Made by a program: the position numbers and the translations under genes. The notes beneath the pieces are model-generated. The model was not told the origin of the DNA. It searched no databases and saw only the letters and a list, made by a program, of their open reading frames with translations. A DNA stretch of 64,000 nucleotides, from contig JAFXKZ010000002.1 of assembly GCA_017531445.1 (NCBI GenBank), positions 85,213-149,212 of the forward strand. Reading direction: 5' to 3'. Of this stretch, positions 10,512 to 18,459 are shown piece by piece. The stretch's first letter is position 1, and each line of letters starts with the position of its first letter. The stretch comes from Kiritimatiellia bacterium. Lineage in GTDB: Bacteria > Verrucomicrobiota > Kiritimatiellia > RFP12 > DVOR01.

Positions 10512-12233
10512 TTATTTTGCCTTGAAGGAGTCTTTCAAGGTTACGGTGCGGTTGAATACCGGAGCTCCGGGTTTTGAAGCGTGGATGTCTGGAGTAAAAT
10601 AGCCAACGCGTTCAAATTGATAGTATTCTCCCGGGCGTGCTTCAGCAAGATGCGGCTCTACATAACCTGTTATGACCTTGACACTTTCAGGAGCAAGTGC
10701 GTCCAAAAAGTTTCCGCTTGGGGCACTCATCGGGTCTTCCAACGCGAACAGCCGATCATAGAGACGCACTTCAACAGCTTTGGCATATGCCGCACTGACC
10801 CAATGGATGGTTCCTTTCACTTTACGGCCATCAGAAGGATTGCCGCCTTTACTGACAGGATCATAAGTGCCATGAATCTCGGTAACAACGCCCTGTTCAT
10901 CTTTTACGACATGTGTGCAGGTGAATAGGCAGAGGCCACGCAAGCGCACTTCGTTCCCAACGGTTACGCGGAAGAACTTCTTAACCGGCACTTCCATAAA
11001 ATCGTCCCGGTCGATCCACAATTCACGTGTTGCGTGGATTGTCCGCTTGCCTGCGCTTTCGTTTTCCGGATTGTTCGGCACTTCTGCGGTGAGTTCAACA
11101 CCTTCCGGAAGATTGTCAATGATGAGTTTTACCGGATTTAATACGGCCATCCGACGTGTGGCATTGCGATTCAACTCGTCACGGACGCACCACTCCAGGA
11201 GGGCAAGGTCGGTGAGCGATTTATATTTGGAGATGCCGGTGCGTTCGCAGAGATCGCGGATGGCCGCCGCCGGATAGCCGCGCCGGCGCATACCTGCTAC
11301 AGTCGGCATCCGCGGATCGTCCCATCCGTCCACGTGCCCTTCCTCAACCAATTGGCGTAACAGCCGCTTGCTCATCACCGTGTAGGTGAGGTTGAGCCGG
11401 GCAAATTCGCGTTGTTGCGGACGAATGGTTTTGCCATTCCTTACAACGAGACGGCCTTGCTCTTCAAGGCGATCGATGACCCAATCATACAGCGGACGGT
11501 GGACTTCAAATTCGAGTGTACACATGGAGTGCGTAACGCCCTCAAGCGCATCTTCAATGGGATGGGCAAAGTCATACATCGGGTAACAGTGCCACGTATC
11601 ACCGGTATGATAATGCGGCTGGTGAACGATGCGGTAGATCACCGGATCGCGGAAATGGATATTGGGCGAAGCCATGTCGATTTTTGCGCGCAGGCAGTGC
11701 GTCCCTTCTGCAAAATCACCGGCGCGCATCCGGCGGAAGAGTGTTAGGTTCTCTTCAACGCTGCGGTCGCGATACGGGGAAAATCGTCCCGGCTCTTGCG
11801 GGATGCCACGGTAGGCTTTCCACTCTTCTTGTGTGAGGTCGCAAACGTATGCTTGTCCGCGGCGAATCAGTTCTTCTGCGATGTCCCACATCGTTTCAAA
11901 CATATCGCAGGCATAGAAAAACTTGTCCCACTTATAACCCAACCACGTGATGTCTTGCTTTAATTGCTCAACGAATTCATCTGTTTCTTTGGAAGGATTG
12001 GTGTCATCCATGCGCAAATGACAGGAACCATTGAAGTGTTTTGCCATGCCGAAGTCCACCCAGACGGCTTTTGCATGTCCGATGTGAATCCATCCGTTCG
12101 GTTCCGGAGGGAAACGGGTGACAACGGTGCCATCGTTTTTACCGGCGGCGAGGTCTTCTTCAATCCATTGACGCAAGAAATGGCGCGCTGTATCGGATTC
12201 TGCCGCAGGCGTGGTGAGTTCTTTTTCTTCCAT
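10512..12233 (-). CDS. glnS: Glutamine--tRNA ligase
   Basis: TRFPPEPNGWIHIGHAK (HIGH), VMSKR (KMSKS-like), QFERVGYF and FNRTVTLKD. Confidence 0.97.
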   Translation of the reverse strand: MEEKELTTPAAESDTARHFLRQWIEEDLAAGKNDGTVVTRFPPEPNGWIHIGHAKAVWVDFGMAKHFNGSCHLRMDDTNPSKETDEFVEQLKQDITWLGYKWDKFFYACDMFETMWDIAEELIRRGQAYVCDLTQEEWKAYRGIPQEPGRFSPYRDRSVEENLTLFRRMRAGDFAEGTHCLRAKIDMASPNIHFRDPVIYRIVHQPHYHTGDTWHCYPMYDFAHPIEDALEGVTHSMCTLEFEVHRPLYDWVIDRLEEQGRLVVRNGKTIRPQQREFARLNLTYTVMSKRLLRQLVEEGHVDGWDDPRMPTVAGMRRRGYPAAAIRDLCERTGISKYKSLTDLALLEWCVRDELNRNATRRMAVLNPVKLIIDNLPEGVELTAEVPNNPENESAGKRTIHATRELWIDRDDFMEVPVKKFFRVTVGNEVRLRGLCLFTCTHVVKDEQGVVTEIHGTYDPVSKGGNPSDGRKVKGTIHWVSAAYAKAVEVRLYDRLFALEDPMSAPSGNFLDALAPESVKVITGYVEPHLAEARPGEYYQFERVGYFTPDIHASKPGAPVFNRTVTLKDSFKAK

Positions 12234-12314
12234 AAGATACATTTCCTTCAAAGTAAAATCCGCATAAGTATAGCAAATTTACGCACGATGAAATTATTTT
12301 GCTACACTGTTGCC

Positions 12315-13247
12315 ATGAAGTTTTCGCTGTCCAGTTCCTATTTTGCAGGGCGTCGTTATACGCCGGATGTGATGGTCGCACAAACGGTTGCGCTCGGATT
12401 TGATGCGCTTGAATTGGGTTATTTTACGCGTGAGGTGGAGTTGGACGCCTGGCAGATGGCGTTGGCACGTGAGGGTGCTTCGGTTTCCAGTATTCACGCC
12501 TTTTGCCCGATGCCGCTTGAAATGCCGCAACTGGGGCCGGAAGTGTTCAGTCTTGCTGCACCGGAGCACGAGGAGCGACAGGCGGCGATACGGGCGATGT
12601 TGCGTACACTGGAAGCGGCGGTGCGCTTCGGTGCGCGTGCGGTTGTTACGCATGGTGGTCGGGTGGAGTTACGCGAGCCGGCGCGTTTGTTTGGTCGTCG
12701 CCCTTACCGTTCACGTTTGTCTCAATCGCTTGAACAGTTGGGATTTATTGATGAATCCCTGGTGGAGCGCGAGCGGGCGTTTCGTGAAAGTGCCGCGCCC
12801 AAGTGGCTGGATGCCGTCTCTTTTTCGTTGGAAGTGCTGTTGCCGCATTTTGAAGCCGCCGGTGTGGCACTCGCCTTTGAGAATCTCCCCGGGATTGAAG
12901 CGTTCCCGGATCCTGCCGAGTGTGCATTTCTGCGTGAACGCTTCCCATCGACCGCGCTTGCTGCGTGGTATGATATCGGGCACGGTGAACGTAAGGCACG
13001 AACGGGCGATTGGCCTGTACAGGAGACATTGTCGCTCACGTATCCGTTTACGGTAGGTGTACATATCCATGATGTACGTGGTTTGGAAGAAGACCATTGT
13101 GCGCCGGGAGATGGAACGGTAGATTTCCGGATGCTGCTGCCGCTTTTGAAGAAAGAGGGATTGATTCGCGTCTTTGAACCTTCGCCGAACGTCTCTGCCG
13201 CCGCGTTGCAATCCGGCCTCCAGCGTATACGCACGCTTCTGGAATAA
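12315..13247 (+). CDS. Sugar phosphate isomerase/epimerase (xylose isomerase-like TIM barrel)
   Basis: SSIHAF, FENLP, WYDIGH, HIHD, DHCAPGDG and FEP metal-binding motifs. Confidence 0.85.
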   Translation: MKFSLSSSYFAGRRYTPDVMVAQTVALGFDALELGYFTREVELDAWQMALAREGASVSSIHAFCPMPLEMPQLGPEVFSLAAPEHEERQAAIRAMLRTLEAAVRFGARAVVTHGGRVELREPARLFGRRPYRSRLSQSLEQLGFIDESLVERERAFRESAAPKWLDAVSFSLEVLLPHFEAAGVALAFENLPGIEAFPDPAECAFLRERFPSTALAAWYDIGHGERKARTGDWPVQETLSLTYPFTVGVHIHDVRGLEEDHCAPGDGTVDFRMLLPLLKKEGLIRVFEPSPNVSAAALQSGLQRIRTLLE

Positions 13248-13451
13248 TTTTCATTCTGCCTTTTTGTTTGTTTTGAAGACAGTCTCTTTTTTACCGGAAA
13301 AGGTAAATACAGAGGGGATGTCTTTCCGTGCGTAATCCCGGAGTCGGCACGCAACAATCCTTGAAAAATGAACACATGCGCATGGAACGCGGGATGAATG
13401 AAAAGGGGTTTATCGGGAGGAGAATTGAATCCCGCCGATACCGGAAGTGTA

Positions 13452-13515
13452 TGTGGGCGAAATGCGGCGTCAATTTCGGCGATGTTCAGGGGGCAAAGCC
13501 GCCCATGTTGAAACA
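13452..13515. repeat. Dispersed intergenic element, copy 2
   Basis: GTGGGCGAAA...TTCGGCGATGTTCAGGGGGCAAAGCCGCCCATGTTGAAACA. Confidence 0.55.
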
Positions 13516-13663
13516 CGATTCCGCCAAGGCGTGGAGGATGAAATGACGTTGGAGAGCGGAGAGGTGTGGCCTCAGTATTCGTTGAAGGCGGTTTACGACT
13601 TATAAAATGTGCGCGTAGGCTGTTCAGGGGGATGTTTGAGGAGCGTGGCACTTAAAAGGGAGT

Positions 13664-13693
13664 TTGTTGTGAGGATGAGCGATATGGTATAAT
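13664..13693 (+). promoter_or_regulatory. Sigma70 promoter with extended -10 for the PKS-like operon
   Basis: TTGTTG-18 nt-TATAAT, with TG one base upstream of the -10 hexamer (TGGTATAAT). Confidence 0.6.
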
Positions 13694-13717
13694 GAAGCAG
13701 GTTTTGGAGTTGCAGTT

Positions 13718-15109
13718 ATGCGATCGAATTCTGCAGAGAGTATTGTTTTTACCGGACTGAGTGGCTGTTTTGCCCGCGCGACGACGCCGAGGGAAATATG
13801 GAAGGCGATTTTGCGCAAACGCAATTTCTTTATGCCACTTCCCGAAACGGCCGATGGGCATACCGCCGATGAATTGATTTCCGGGTGTCCGCTTCCGGAA
13901 GTGTGTGCTTCGCTGGATGATTGTTTTTCTTGCCGGGCGGATCATATCCCGTTGCCGCCGGATGTCGGCATTGGCGATAATACAGATTTTTGGTTTGCGG
14001 CGCAGTTGCTGCATGATGCGCTTTGTGATGCAGGGTTGCCTCCCGGTGCAAATCATACGGATCGAATCGCGCTTTTTGTCGGGTATGATGCGGGGTTGAA
14101 TCCCGCCTTGGTCAATTGGCTGTGGCATGCCAATGCCGTAGGGCAGATTCTGGGGACGCTGCAACGCTTTTTCCCGGATGCAACCTACGAACAGATGGAT
14201 GCTTTGCGGGCGGAAATTACCAATACATTGCCACTGTTGAAGCGGCGTCAACTGGCCTTGTCGCGCGGTGATGGCGTGGTGCGCGCCTTGGCGCAAACCA
14301 TTGGAGCTTGCGATACGGCCAGTCTTTGCACGGCGGGAGAAAGTTCTGTTTTCGCCGGATTGGAAGCCGCTTCAAATGCGTTGCGTCAACGGCAATGCGA
14401 TGTAGCGGTCGTATTAACGTTGCAGCCTCCGATCCCACAAACGCAGATGGCCGGCGAAGCAGCGTTGACACCTTTTGCGAAAGGGGGTGTGCTGGCTCCC
14501 TTTACTGCAACTGCATCCGGAACGCTTCCGGGAGAAGGTGGGGCTGCATTTGTCTTGCGTCGCATGAGCGATGTGTATGGATCTGAGCCGATTTATGCAA
14601 AATTGCATGGTTGCAGTCAGATCTCAGGTATCCCGCCGGATACGCCGGAGGCTCTGGAAGAATCGCTCCGTCGCGCTCTGCATCGGGCGTTGCGTCGCAT
14701 CCCCAATGGTTTCCGTGATATTGATTACTGGGAAATGAATGCCTCCGGTATTCCACAAGAAGATGCGGCAGAAGAAGCGTTATTGAGGAAATTGACTATC
14801 AATCGGGGCGCGCATATTCCCCTGCTGGCTCTTGGTTCGGCAAAGACTTCTTTCGGTCATACGCTTACCGCTGCCGGAGCATTAGGATTGCTGAAAGGTC
14901 TGCTGGCGGTGAAACATTGCGTATTGCCTCCTTCTGTGACGCCTGTGGATGAAACGTTTCGTTTGAAAGAATCGGAGCATGCTTACTATTGGGTTCAGGA
15001 AGCACGCCCCTGGATTGCTTCCTCCATGCGGCCACGGCGATTGGCGGTTTCAACCATCTCTCATACCGGACGCTCCGGTGCTGCCATCCTTGAGGAGGTG
15101 ACCGAATGA
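13718..15109 (+). CDS. Beta-ketoacyl synthase-like protein lacking the catalytic Cys (chain-length-factor type, PUFA-synthase-like)
   Basis: KS scaffold motifs PFTATASGTLPGEGGAAFVLRR, GSAKTSFGHT and KGLLAVKH..LPP; TAGESSV replaces TACSSSL and EMNASG replaces EAHGTG. Confidence 0.8.
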   Translation: MRSNSAESIVFTGLSGCFARATTPREIWKAILRKRNFFMPLPETADGHTADELISGCPLPEVCASLDDCFSCRADHIPLPPDVGIGDNTDFWFAAQLLHDALCDAGLPPGANHTDRIALFVGYDAGLNPALVNWLWHANAVGQILGTLQRFFPDATYEQMDALRAEITNTLPLLKRRQLALSRGDGVVRALAQTIGACDTASLCTAGESSVFAGLEAASNALRQRQCDVAVVLTLQPPIPQTQMAGEAALTPFAKGGVLAPFTATASGTLPGEGGAAFVLRRMSDVYGSEPIYAKLHGCSQISGIPPDTPEALEESLRRALHRALRRIPNGFRDIDYWEMNASGIPQEDAAEEALLRKLTINRGAHIPLLALGSAKTSFGHTLTAAGALGLLKGLLAVKHCVLPPSVTPVDETFRLKESEHAYYWVQEARPWIASSMRPRRLAVSTISHTGRSGAAILEEVTE

Positions 15110-18100
15110 GACTGGAACGATCAGAAGGTGTTTTATGTTTGATTGGTGCAGCATCGATTCCGGCTTTGGCAGATGAGGTGTTGCGCATTCAGGCTTTTAT
15201 TGAAAAAAGCACCGGGTTGCGATTGATTGATGTGGTCTATACGGCCACTTGTGATGCACGTAAGCATCCCTGTGTGGTGGGATTATGGGTAAACTCCTTG
15301 GAGGAGATGGTGCGTAAATTACGCTTTGCCTGTAACGCATTGCGCAGCGGAAGAACGCGAATGCGCGACAAGTCCGGCGTCTTTTTTACAACGCGCCCGC
15401 TCGTTCACTCCGGCGGAAAAGTAGCGTTTGTCTTCCCCGGTACAGGCAGTTTCCACTTGGAAATGATGCGTGATCTCGCCTTGACCTTTGATGGTGTTCG
15501 CCAACGTTTTGACGACATGGAGGAGGCTTTTTCAGGCTTTTGCGATGTTGCTTCCCCCTCTGAATGGCTTTTTTCGACAGCACCGGAGCATACACTTTCT
15601 TTAGCCGCATCGCGTGATTTCCTGCCACTTCTCGCCTCGGCTTCCACCTATCTTGCCAGTAAAGTCTTTGCTGATTTCCTCTTGTCGGTGGGGGTTAAGC
15701 CCGATGCTGTCTGCGGCGTTGGGCTGGGGGCTTTCTCGGCCTTTCATGCAACACACCACAATCCGAAGTTGAGTTTGGTTCAGATTTTGAGAGATGCCGG
15801 GCGTCTTCTATTGCGGTTGAGTTCGGAAGCGACTGAGTTTACCGGATGGACACAGTTGACGGTTTCCGGAATGCCAGTCAGTGCATTGCAAAATCTCGCA
15901 CGGCGCAATCCCCAAAAAATGATTGTCGCACAAACGTTAACTGAGAATGACTGTATTGTGATGGTCTCGCCGGAAAAACGGTCGGAAGCGGAGATTGCAA
16001 TTGCAAACAGTGGTGGTGTTTCAGTGGCAGAGCCACTTGTTATTGCTGTAAATACAGGGCAGACGCCGCCTAATCTTAAGGCGTTGTTTGAACAATTCTT
16101 CCAGCGTCATGTTACTTGTGAACCGCAAGTCCCGTTTTATTCTGCGGTAACAGCAGAGCGTATGGACGCTTCAATGACGGCTGTTGTCGAGGGTCTCGCC
16201 GAGCAGATGTGCCAACCCTTGGATTTCGCTGCAATGATTCGTAAAATGTATGCCGACGGGTGTCGAATCTTTGTTGAGGTGGGTGCGCGTGGATTGTTGA
16301 CGCCATTGATTGCGACCGTGTTGGCAGATGTGGAGGAACCTCCGGCAGTGATTCCAATGCAAGTGCTGCATCGTTCCGGAGGTGTTCAGGTAGGGCAGGC
16401 CCTGGGATTGCTGGCAGCGCATGGTGTTCCGGTGGACTATTCCAAGATACGCTTCTTTAATCATGCAAAACGTTTGGACTTTTCTACTCCGATTGCGGAT
16501 GAAATGAGTAATCTTCTGACGCTGAAGCTTTTGCGTGATTTGCCCGCGATCCGACCGGAATTGATCGATGTTTCACGTGTGTTGAGTATGCAACAGACTG
16601 TCTTTTCCGATGAAACTGGCGCATCACATACGCATACCTTCTCTGCAGAACTTCCGAGGGATGGGTTGGAATCTCCGCTTTTGCGCGGCGCGACAGAGTT
16701 CGCCCGGACGCCGGAGATGCTTGGGTTGCGGTGTGTGCTTCGTCTGGAAGATTATCCATATCTGAATGATTACGCTATCGGCACCTCCGGCGTTTCGATG
16801 CATGATCCGCAAATGCGCGGACTGACACTCTTCTCTGTGACTTCCAGCCTTGAGATTATGGCAGAGACGGCTCAACGGCTTTTGCCGCGCCTTGCGCTTC
16901 ACAGTGTTGAGCATCTTCGTGCGCCTCGCTGGCAATCGTTTACGTTTGGTACATTGAAATTGCGCATTATTGCGGAGTGTATACCTGCGGCTTCGGAAGC
17001 ACTTCGCGCGGTTAAAGTGCGTATTTATCCGGAGGACCTTGCCGGAGAAGCGGCGCATGTCGCGGTGGAAGCGGTCTTTTTCTTTACCGAAACGATTCCG
17101 GAACCGCAGGAAGAATTACCGACTTCGCCTTTGGTCAGCCCGAAAGTGGTTAACTGGATGGCGCATGATATCTATCCACAACGCCTTTTCCAAGGGCCGC
17201 TTTTGCGGAATGTCCGAAAAGTGTCGGGATGGGGCTATAATGGTTTGGACTACGAGGTGCGGATGCCCTCTCGCGCGGCGGCTGTGCGTCATACGCGCAA
17301 TCCGCTTTTTGTGACGATGCCGCTTTTGCTGGACGCTGTCGTGTCAGGATTCCCGTTGTGGCGTTCGCATGAGCGTTTTCATGGTGCGATTTCGCTTCCG
17401 TTCCGTTGCCAAAAAATCAATTACTATGCCACGATGGTGCCGATTGGGACGCGTCTGCGCTGTGCCTTGCGTTTGGTCAATGTTACGGTGCGTACGTTCC
17501 AGGTGGAGATTCTTGTTACGGATCTTTCGGGGCATCCGATTTTACGGATAGAGGGATGGGAAGAGGTCGGCGGTCGTGCCGTAAGGACACTGCATGACTA
17601 TATCATGAATCCGGCCAAGAACTATATCACGAAGCCGTTGCCTTCGGCGATTTTGCCGGATCCGGAAGTCAGTATCATCGGTGCGCTCTATGTGAATGAT
17701 GCGCCGGACTTCTTTATCTCCAATCAGGAGTTGTGGTTGAGTGCGCTGGCTTCAGCCGTATTGACTGCAAATGAACGGGAAAATTATGCCCAAATGGGTG
17801 GCGTAGCTCCGCGTCGTTTGGAATGGTTGTTGGGGCGAACTGCAGCGAAGGAAGCCGTGCGCCGGTTGCTGGTAGAGAACTACAACATCTATGAATCTTC
17901 TGCCGATATTGCGGTTTGGAAAGATAATATGGGCAAACCCCATCCGCTGGGAGATTGGGAGGCACACGTCTCGACACCGATCGATCTTTCCATCGCACAT
18001 ACGGAAGGTCTGATATTGGGTGCGGCAACGGCCCAAGGACGTATTGGTTTGGATGTTGAATCGGTTAAACGCGATTTGACCGAGGAGTTCTTAAGGGGGG

Positions 18101-18399
18101 TCTTCACGCTTGAGGAACAGGAATTGGCCACGATGAGCGGTGATGGTCCTACGGCTGTTTTGCGCTTCTGGTGTGCAAAAGAAGCCATTTCCAAGGCACT
18201 TGGTGTAGGCATCCGATTCTCTCCGACGGATTTGCGCATCCGCACGTCAGATCCTGCTACGGGGATGCTCGGCATGGACCTTTGCGGAGCATGGGCGGAA
18301 CACTTCCCAATGTTTCGGAACACACGTATCGCGATTAAGACCTGTGTGCTGTATGATCACGCGATCGCGTGTTGTATTTTGCCGAACTTCCAAGTGTAA
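15106..18399 (+). CDS. Degenerate PKS protein: AT-like plus double hot-dog DH-like domains fused to a C-terminal Sfp-type 4'-phosphopantetheinyl transferase
   Basis: AT-like VFPGTGSF, GVGLG, FYSAVTA and IFVEVGARG; DH-like PYLNDYAIG, LFQGP and LLDAVV; PPTase EWLLGRTAAKEAV, GKP, SIAHT, IGLDVE and WCAKEAISKALG. ATGA overlap with the upstream gene. Confidence 0.8.
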   Translation: MRLERSEGVLCLIGAASIPALADEVLRIQAFIEKSTGLRLIDVVYTATCDARKHPCVVGLWVNSLEEMVRKLRFACNALRSGRTRMRDKSGVFFTTRPLVHSGGKVAFVFPGTGSFHLEMMRDLALTFDGVRQRFDDMEEAFSGFCDVASPSEWLFSTAPEHTLSLAASRDFLPLLASASTYLASKVFADFLLSVGVKPDAVCGVGLGAFSAFHATHHNPKLSLVQILRDAGRLLLRLSSEATEFTGWTQLTVSGMPVSALQNLARRNPQKMIVAQTLTENDCIVMVSPEKRSEAEIAIANSGGVSVAEPLVIAVNTGQTPPNLKALFEQFFQRHVTCEPQVPFYSAVTAERMDASMTAVVEGLAEQMCQPLDFAAMIRKMYADGCRIFVEVGARGLLTPLIATVLADVEEPPAVIPMQVLHRSGGVQVGQALGLLAAHGVPVDYSKIRFFNHAKRLDFSTPIADEMSNLLTLKLLRDLPAIRPELIDVSRVLSMQQTVFSDETGASHTHTFSAELPRDGLESPLLRGATEFARTPEMLGLRCVLRLEDYPYLNDYAIGTSGVSMHDPQMRGLTLFSVTSSLEIMAETAQRLLPRLALHSVEHLRAPRWQSFTFGTLKLRIIAECIPAASEALRAVKVRIYPEDLAGEAAHVAVEAVFFFTETIPEPQEELPTSPLVSPKVVNWMAHDIYPQRLFQGPLLRNVRKVSGWGYNGLDYEVRMPSRAAAVRHTRNPLFVTMPLLLDAVVSGFPLWRSHERFHGAISLPFRCQKINYYATMVPIGTRLRCALRLVNVTVRTFQVEILVTDLSGHPILRIEGWEEVGGRAVRTLHDYIMNPAKNYITKPLPSAILPDPEVSIIGALYVNDAPDFFISNQELWLSALASAVLTANERENYAQMGGVAPRRLEWLLGRTAAKEAVRRLLVENYNIYESSADIAVWKDNMGKPHPLGDWEAHVSTPIDLSIAHTEGLILGAATAQGRIGLDVESVKRDLTEEFLRGVFTLEEQELATMSGDGPTAVLRFWCAKEAISKALGVGIRFSPTDLRIRTSDPATGMLGMDLCGAWAEHFPMFRNTRIAIKTCVLYDHAIACCILPNFQV

Positions 18400-18425: not shown

Positions 18426-18459
18426 TGCCGTGCAGAGGTCGTAAAGTCTCTGCACGGCA
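18426..18459. terminator. Hairpin/terminator between the convergent PKS-like gene and hemB
   Basis: TGCCGTGCAGAG-10 nt-CTCTGCACGGCA perfect 12-bp stem. Confidence 0.7.

Follow-up and report, generated by a model that had tools for sequence, protein, structure and literature searches.

Two genes for a catalytically dead polyketide synthase module with an intact phosphopantetheinyl transferase, the probable holo-ACP synthase of an order of Kiritimatiellia

The gene pair and its domains

The stretch of DNA analysed here (the window; 64,000 nt of contig JAFXKZ010000002.1 from the Kiritimatiellia bacterium assembly GCA_017531445.1, positions 85,213 to 149,212 of the forward strand) contains two adjacent genes, ORF A and ORF B. 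Together they encode ketosynthase (KS)-like, acyltransferase (AT)-like and dehydratase (DH)-like domains of a polyketide synthase (PKS), all of which have lost catalytic residues, followed by an Sfp-type phosphopantetheinyl transferase (PPTase). The pair is probably the remnant of a Pfa-like PKS complex whose PPTase became the only one of the cell and acts on the acyl carrier protein (ACP) AcpP. The features of the locus are the following (positions in the window):

13685-13693, plus strand: extended -10 element TGgTATAAT, 25 nt 5' of the ATG of ORF A, read from the sequence (presumed promoter)
13706-13709, plus strand: ribosome-binding site GGAG, 8 nt 5' of the ATG of ORF A, read from the sequence
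13718-15109, plus strand: ORF A, KS-like, 463 aa, from the ORF listing
15106-15109, plus strand: ATGA stop/start overlap of ORF A and ORF B, 4 nt, from the ORF coordinates
15106-18399, plus strand: ORF B, linker-AT-DH-PPTase, 1097 aa, from the ORF listing
15130-15405, plus strand: KS-to-AT linker domain, ORF B residues 9-100 (Pfam CurL-like_PKS_C, 0.01; aligns with CurL 488-580; AlphaFold2 (AF2) predicted local distance difference test (pLDDT) value about 90)
15406-16440, plus strand: AT-like domain, dead, residues 101-445 (domain searches, alignment, Foldseek TMt 0.74-0.79 to PKS ATs)
16441-16710, plus strand: post-AT linker, residues 446-535, partly disordered (AF2 pLDDT below 50 at 467-505)
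16711-17685, plus strand: DH-like double hot-dog domain, dead, residues 536-860 (Pfam PS-DH, 8e-6; AF2; alignment to intact relatives)
17704-18399, plus strand: Sfp-type PPTase, residues 867-1097 (Pfam ACPS, 3e-15, and 4PPT_N)
18426-18459, no strand assigned: perfect 14-bp G+C-rich hairpin between the convergent ORF B and hemB, read from the sequence

The ATGA overlap suggests translational coupling of ORF A and ORF B, and the junction between them coincides exactly with the boundary between the KS and the KS-AT linker of a type I PKS module. The -35 region in front of ORF A is weak (TTGTTG-like), so that the promoter was missed by a consensus scan. T-rich tails flank the hairpin on either strand, and it is a probable bidirectional terminator. 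These frames and predicted signals are in agreement with an earlier note on this DNA, which had described a two-gene operon with its own promoter and terminator and had seen no ACP, ketoreductase (KR) or active KS in its two long open frames. Domain searches agree with the latter statement: no PP-binding (carrier protein) match was obtained in ORF A, in ORF B or anywhere in the window, and the two PP-binding matches of the genome lie elsewhere on the same contig.

Searches against Pfam and NCBIfam identified the N- and C-terminal KS domains in ORF A. An AF2 model built from the family alignment reached a mean pLDDT of 90 and a predicted template modelling (pTM) score of 0.91, and Foldseek matched ORF A over its whole length to the KS of type I PKSs (TMq 0.73-0.80), the best match being the KSQ-AT didomain 7uwr. 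Of the Cys-His-His triad of an active type I PKS KS only the last residue is left. TAGESS aligns with TAC-SS of PksL and places G207 (HMMER) or E208 (MAFFT) at the position of the Cys (nt 14336-14341); the two registers are shifted by one residue, and the Cys is absent under either. The first His is replaced by N341 (nt 14738-14740; EMNASG aligned to EMHGTG), and the second is present as H381 (nt 14858-14860; SFGHT). Throughout the family the Cys position is occupied by G, E, M, A or S. Distant members for the most part still have the first His, which is Asn in the clade of the window. Lys376 is retained, as is the second His in most members. An AGE(S/A)S motif, with the Glu at or beside the old Cys position, is conserved and specific to the clade.

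Two candidate activities of the KS-like protein were rejected. Cys204, which the earlier note had named as a possible alternative nucleophile, lies 3 residues before the elbow; its conservation does not extend to relatives below about 53% identity, and the more distant members have T, N, D or M instead. A KSQ-like decarboxylase would need a Gln, which is missing, and the first His, which is lost. A word-indexed search with ORF A as query went no further than relatives of 32% identity; for the remoter KS partners, the contigs that carry distant ORF B homologues were used.

In ORF B the same searches recognised the AT (fabD, 3e-16; AT of PfaA, 1e-21). The AF2 model of ORF B (mean pLDDT 85.6) shows folded blocks at residues 9-100, 105-440, 530-860 and 867-1097, and Foldseek also matched it to KS-AT-DH modules. 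Where an active AT carries GHSxG and a catalytic His, the elbow of ORF B reads G204-V205-G206-L207-G208 (nt 15715-15729), with V205 for the His and G206 for the Ser in the alignment to GHSQG, and the catalytic His is N316 (AVNT aligned to AFHS). PGTGSF stands for PGQGSQ (PGQGSH in the alignment to PKS ATs). Ser211, as an alternative nucleophile, was ruled out on position alone, being in the helix after the elbow. The catalytic His of the DH motif HxxxGxxxxP is replaced by Y556 (PYLNDYAIG, aligned to intact relatives). The post-AT linker is the least conserved segment of the protein (identity 0.51 versus 0.65-0.78 elsewhere).

Group II PPTases have a Mg-binding Asp/Glu/Glu triad, of which the first and third residues are essential, together with the motif (F/W)xxKE(A/S)xxK (PMC4103896). 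The C-terminal domain of ORF B has D983, E985 and E1026 in the triad and K1025 and K1030 in the second motif. Its motifs SIAH965T, GLD983VE985 and FW1022CAK1025E1026AISK1030ALG are intact, and H965, D983, E985, W1022, K1025, E1026 and K1030 are invariant among 66 aligned homologues. With about 230 aa, two AcpS-like halves and a confident AF2 model, the domain has the two-lobed build of the Sfp type; its N half resembles the C-terminal part of AcpS, and its C half resembles AcpS or the PPT of fungal fatty acid synthase (FAS). The enzyme is predicted to move 4'-phosphopantetheine from coenzyme A (CoA) onto an apo-carrier protein. The reading of the earlier note, which had listed a KS without its Cys and with Asn for the first His, GVGLG and AVNT in the AT, a Tyr in the DH and a full set of Sfp motifs, was confirmed residue by residue in alignments to the KS of PksL, PKS ATs, the family, intact relatives and the 66 PPTase homologues.

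Conservation, selection and ancestry

About 95 full-length homologues of ORF B were collected, all of about 1,100 aa, with identities from 84% down to 29%. Their sources are labelled Kiritimatiellia/Kiritimatiellae or Candidatus Spyradenecus; a protein from the latter is 68% identical, and NCBI places Candidatus Spyradenecus in Lentisphaerota, so that lineage names conflict. A KS-like gene lies directly upstream of the ORF B homologue in 6 distant loci with DNA (L004, L005, L049, L050, L051 and L052), with an ATGA, abutting or slightly longer overlap junction, and overlaps it likewise in a seventh distant locus known from called genes only. Three relatives (P0101, P0102 and P0104) are single KS-AT-DH-PPT chains. 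From these and from the junction at the module boundary, we infer that ORF A and ORF B assemble as a module-like complex. ORF B homologues in two pieces (linker-AT and DH-PPT) on separate contigs were seen in G122, G125, G095, G061, G092 and G082; several lie at contig ends, and they may be assembly breaks or real splits.

Among genomes of the same genus, 25 of 26 have one uninterrupted copy. Selection was estimated by the Nei-Gojobori method (NG86) from six close same-genus sister pairs; in pairs including the window's own gene, synonymous sites are saturated (dS >2 or undefined). The ranges of dN/dS are:

KS-like: 0.01-0.11
N-terminal KS-AT linker domain: 0.02-0.34
AT-like: 0.03-0.10
post-AT linker: 0.01-0.32
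DH-like: 0.06-0.21
PPTase: 0.00-0.23

On average, the window's protein shares with its close clade an identity of 0.70 in the AT-like, 0.65 in the DH-like and 0.78 in the PPTase domain. The KS, AT and DH parts have thus the marks of pseudo-enzymes: the fold is retained, catalytic residues are lost, and dN/dS is well below 1. The stepwise loss of catalytic residues, with the AT Ser lost repeatedly, speaks for the alternative of a decaying relic that drifts neutrally beside a PPTase under selection. However, dN/dS is far below 1 in each dead domain, none of the 25 same-genus genomes carrying the gene has an interrupted frame, and full length is kept down to the most distant homologues, with confident models of all domains. 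The intact frames and the dN/dS values rule this explanation out, and we give it practically no weight. The pattern that would have spoken against the scaffold under selection proposed in the earlier note, random decay with only the PPTase conserved, was not seen: the dead domains have dN/dS values of 0.01-0.21, and about 95 homologues show these substitutions or equivalent ones.

Higher whole-gene omega (dN/dS) values of 0.3-0.66, at low apparent dS, were obtained for the relatives L020, L024, L029 and L032. We attribute them to a presumably convergent base composition at third codon positions (GC3) between non-sister species and not to relaxed selection, and the selection figures were restricted to sister pairs for that reason. 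These four relatives appear G+C-rich and have many long spurious frames.

Intact relatives point to descent of the pair from a Pfa-like (PfaA/PfaC, polyunsaturated fatty acid (PUFA) synthase-like) iterative PKS. A genome of another family of the same class (G034) has an intact cluster of KS-AT-ACP-KR (1,783 aa), KS and AT-DH-PPT genes with all catalytic residues present. The same three genes are clustered in metagenome relatives, and some of these clusters include a PfaD-like NMO enoyl reductase. The PUFA/PKS-like character given to the module in the earlier note finds its support in these clusters. The reduced two-gene form is confined to the order of the window among 151 sampled genomes of the phylum.

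An alignment of 96 sequences was made with MAFFT at fast settings. A tree rooted on the intact relatives shows the order of decay. No member of the two-gene family has the DH His any more, and its position is taken by Y, F, S, A, R or C. A basal clade (P0061, P0063, P0066 and P0073) retains GHSxG and the AT His. In the next clades, which have GF/YSGGD with PFNT, both AT His residues are gone. Repeated independent substitutions then turned the AT Ser into Ala, Gly, Gln, Asn or Val, so that S, A, G, Q, N or V are found at this position, and the clade of the window is fixed at G(V/I)GLG.

The constraint on the dead domains raises the question whether the KS', AT' or DH' pockets have acquired a new function in ligand binding or catalysis that does not involve the PPTase, for example sensing of acyl- or malonyl-ACP or CoA that regulates lipid synthesis, or a thioesterase-like activity. 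The low dN/dS of the separate KS' subunit, the clade-wide AGE(S/A)S motif with its Glu and the retained Lys376 and second His of the KS are in favour of such a neo-functionalised scaffold. On the other hand, no polar residue is conserved family-wide at any former catalytic position, and invariance is limited to the usual structural motifs of the KS and AT folds of PKSs. Moreover, one family of the order, f42, which has a stand-alone PPTase of 275-314 aa, has dropped the entire scaffold and shows no trace of it, and the value of the scaffold therefore seems tied to the PPTase. We consider a new function independent of the PPTase rather unlikely.

The only PPTase of the genome, its candidate clients and the missing partner synthase

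The family PF01648 covers AcpS and Sfp types alike. It matches the genome of the window once, in ORF B. Across the order it was found in 79 of 81 genomes (at least 85% complete), nearly always with exactly one match. Outside f42, nearly all of these matches fall within open frames of roughly 1,000-1,570 aa, the exceptions being a few genomes in which the gene is apparently split or cut at a contig end. Matches in other orders of the class lie in frames of 130-300 aa. The weak f42 enzymes are still detected (E 1e-6 to 1e-10).

The genome of the window also has a plsX-fabD-fabG-acpP cluster with a canonical FabD and an AcpP with the DSL motif. As the only PPTase found in its genome, the fusion should at least serve AcpP, and the normal type II FAS (FAS II) cluster makes this housekeeping ACP the most likely client. 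Same-genus genomes have 1-5 carrier-protein matches, nearly all in small frames, and an AcpP-strength match was present in 19 of 20. The pair is thus most likely the housekeeping holo-ACP synthase of the order, predicted to serve AcpP and a few small ACPs.

A candidate second client, a 96-aa carrier protein with a WDS motif, is encoded beside genes for an FkbH-like protein (499 aa) and a FabH-like beta-ketoacyl-ACP synthase III (KAS III, 329 aa) in the genome of the window (about 215,000-217,700 of G000:C2; locus L035, 6022-8727, minus strand). This small cluster may belong to a glyceryl-ACP-type pathway.

A further link to the cofactor comes from the gene neighbourhood. The first step towards pantothenate and CoA is catalysed by ketopantoate hydroxymethyltransferase, the product of panB. 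In 4 of the 7 distant loci panB lies directly upstream of the KS-like gene in the same orientation (L005, 4749-5567; L049, 2746-3567; L052, 2790-3587; and the contig of P0073), in L052 with a single base between them, and this ties the pair to the supply of pantothenate and CoA. The remaining neighbours have housekeeping functions. In the window, a TIM-barrel gene of the AP_endonuc_2 family occupies this slot.

The earlier note proposed an active PKS or FAS megasynthase, with its genes outside the locus, as docking partner of the pseudo-module. The latter would contribute PPTase activity or control of chain length to the synthesis of an unusual lipid. The intact relatives do operate with a KS-AT-ACP-KR partner. 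In the 20 near-complete same-genus genomes, however, no type I PKS was found: their KS genes are FabF, the homologue of ORF A and, in 7 of the 20, a pair of small KS genes. Across the order, the KS-AT linker domain of type I PKSs exceeded the cut-off in only 2 of 81 genomes, and both of these also hold extra stand-alone PPTases. The small KS pair with its tandem ACPs and the FkbH-ACP-KAS III cluster could be seen as partners of another kind, but accessory KS/ACP clusters are missing from most genomes that keep ORF A and ORF B, and a sole PPTase must serve AcpP at the least. Chain-length control finds no active KS to pair with. Docking onto a megasynthase appears improbable to us, and with it the unusual lipid.

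The accessory locus, present in these 7 genomes and not in the others, combines tandem small ACPs with two neighbouring KS genes (frames of 420-660 aa) and resembles a type II PKS or FAS cluster (examples are G031:C84:13249-23214, G118:C35, G141:C109, G139:C137, G145:C16 and G147:C13).

Proposed role and relation to known systems

Considering these data together, ORF A and ORF B would form one complex, KS'/linker-AT'-DH'-PPTase, centred on a KS dimer. In the ancestor of the order, a gut-associated group of Planctomycetes-Verrucomicrobia-Chlamydiae (PVC) bacteria labelled Kiritimatiellia or Lentisphaerota, an Sfp-type PPTase integrated in a PKS would have become the sole PPTase. The KS-AT-ACP-KR subunit and the stand-alone PPTase would then have been lost, and the active sites of KS, AT and DH would have decayed stepwise, with the folds kept under strong purifying selection. 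At present the PPTase would transfer 4'-phosphopantetheine from CoA to Ser36 of AcpP, which feeds FAS II and through it lipid A and phospholipids, and the other small ACPs of the genome would be further substrates.

The dead domains are former ACP-binding modules. They may provide a platform for dimerisation or ACP docking, or the PPTase may by now require them. Plausible forms of the predicted scaffold role are a KS-dimer core around which two PPTases are arranged, docking of ACP and sensing of a new ligand. In a more specific version, the KS'-AT'-DH' part would handle ACPs on a platform centred on the KS dimer: its three old docking sites would capture apo- or holo-AcpP, so that phosphopantetheinylation becomes processive, or is coupled to the FAS II metabolon or to sensing of the acyl-ACP pool. 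This version is possible, although we would not expect it. If it is true, a pseudo-PKS of two subunits and about 1,560 residues is obligatory for the essential holo-ACP synthesis of a whole order. Of the interpretation given in the earlier note, the selected pseudo-enzyme scaffold around a live PPTase stands; the partner PKS with its unusual lipid and the chain-length control do not.

Several points weigh against the proposal that the pair is a PKS remnant working as holo-ACP synthase. The status as sole PPTase was established with one hidden Markov model, PF01648, on draft metagenome-assembled genomes, which a very divergent AcpS could escape, and the assembly of the window itself is about 50% complete. 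The geometry between the domains of the AF2 model is uncertain (pTM 0.55), and the docking or scaffold role of the dead domains is purely inferred. The KS-like subunit is a separate chain that is constrained at least as much as the PPTase; entrenchment within a fused chain is therefore insufficient as an explanation, and the KS-like protein may have a function of its own.

The closest known systems are the intact, uncharacterised three-gene Pfa-like clusters (L006, L007, L008 and L048). They are homologous to the pair over KS and linker-AT-DH-PPT (24-30% identity), have the KS gene directly 5' of the AT-DH-PPT gene and end likewise in a C-terminal Sfp-type PPTase. Unlike the pair, they keep Cys/His/His in the KS, GHSxG with the His in the AT and the DH His. 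One of their subunits bears ACP and KR, and many of them also include a PfaD-like enoyl reductase. G034, the only source of an intact cluster whose whole genome was searched, additionally has a separate PPTase (309 aa), whereas none was found in the genome of the window.

A C-terminal Sfp-type PPTase after a DH is also known from the enediyne PKSs (PKSE), active and self-activating single chains of about 1,900 aa with the order KS-AT-ACP-KR-DH-PPTase. ORF A and ORF B fall outside this class, as they are two chains with dead sites and without ACP and KR, and their client would be reached in trans. The alpha chain of fungal type I FAS is another megasynthase with a PPTase at its C-terminus beside a KS, in the service of primary lipid synthesis, as predicted for the pair, and its PPT (PDB 4v58) is the best PDB sequence match of the C half of the PPTase (E 6.5e-5). 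In contrast to the two-lobed Sfp-type domain on a dead synthase described here, the fungal PPT is AcpS-like and sits on an active synthase with its own ACP.

Sole broad-specificity Sfp-type PPTases of the PcpS type replace AcpS and serve carrier proteins of primary and secondary metabolism. The same replacement of AcpS by one Sfp-type enzyme is likely for the pair; the PcpS-type enzymes, however, are free-standing and have about 240 aa, while here the PPTase is the last fifth of the two-subunit assembly. An example is PcpS of Pseudomonas aeruginosa. PcpS is named in PMC8433221, and the term 'sole PPTase' is used in PMC13001928. ORF A shares with chain-length factors (CLF), KSQ and KS0 domains a KS fold that has been kept without the Cys and/or the first His. 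In CLF (KS-beta) and KSQ domains a Gln replaces the Cys, and both His remain for decarboxylation; the KS0 domains of trans-AT PKSs keep the Cys and work within an active assembly line. ORF A differs from all of them by Gly/Glu and Asn at these positions and by having no active partner KS; in particular, no active PKS-type KS for a CLF was found in the genus.

The pair combines two known kinds of element, an integrated Sfp-type PPTase and a pseudo-enzyme scaffold. Full-text literature searches returned no description of an architecture of dead PKS module and PPTase, in line with the suggestion of the earlier note that it may be undescribed. PPTases are essential enzymes and drug targets, and the textbook forms are AcpS, the Sfp type and the form integrated in active fungal FAS. 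An order of gut and environmental PVC bacteria appears to have swapped AcpS for a PPTase built into a dead PKS module. It would be a natural case of non-orthologous displacement followed by entrenchment of a pseudo-enzyme, with the intermediates still visible: the intact cluster, loss of the DH His, loss of the AT His and the repeated loss of the AT Ser. The pair is also a suitable system to study the contribution of KS, AT and DH folds beyond catalysis. For genome mining, caution is advisable, as tools of the antiSMASH type will flag these loci as PKS clusters although most likely no polyketide is made.

The genes around the pair have housekeeping functions: glutaminyl-tRNA synthetase (GlnRS), a sugar-phosphate TIM-barrel protein, HemB, YbeY, PTS EIIA and PurH. 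A sigma-54 two-component pair is likewise among the neighbours. The AP_endonuc_2 frame (11964-13247, plus strand) is listed with a TTG start that overlaps the GlnRS gene, and its real start is likely near 12388. An ORF of 309 aa on the minus strand (12722-13651) overlaps the AP_endonuc_2 gene, has no Pfam match and is probably spurious.

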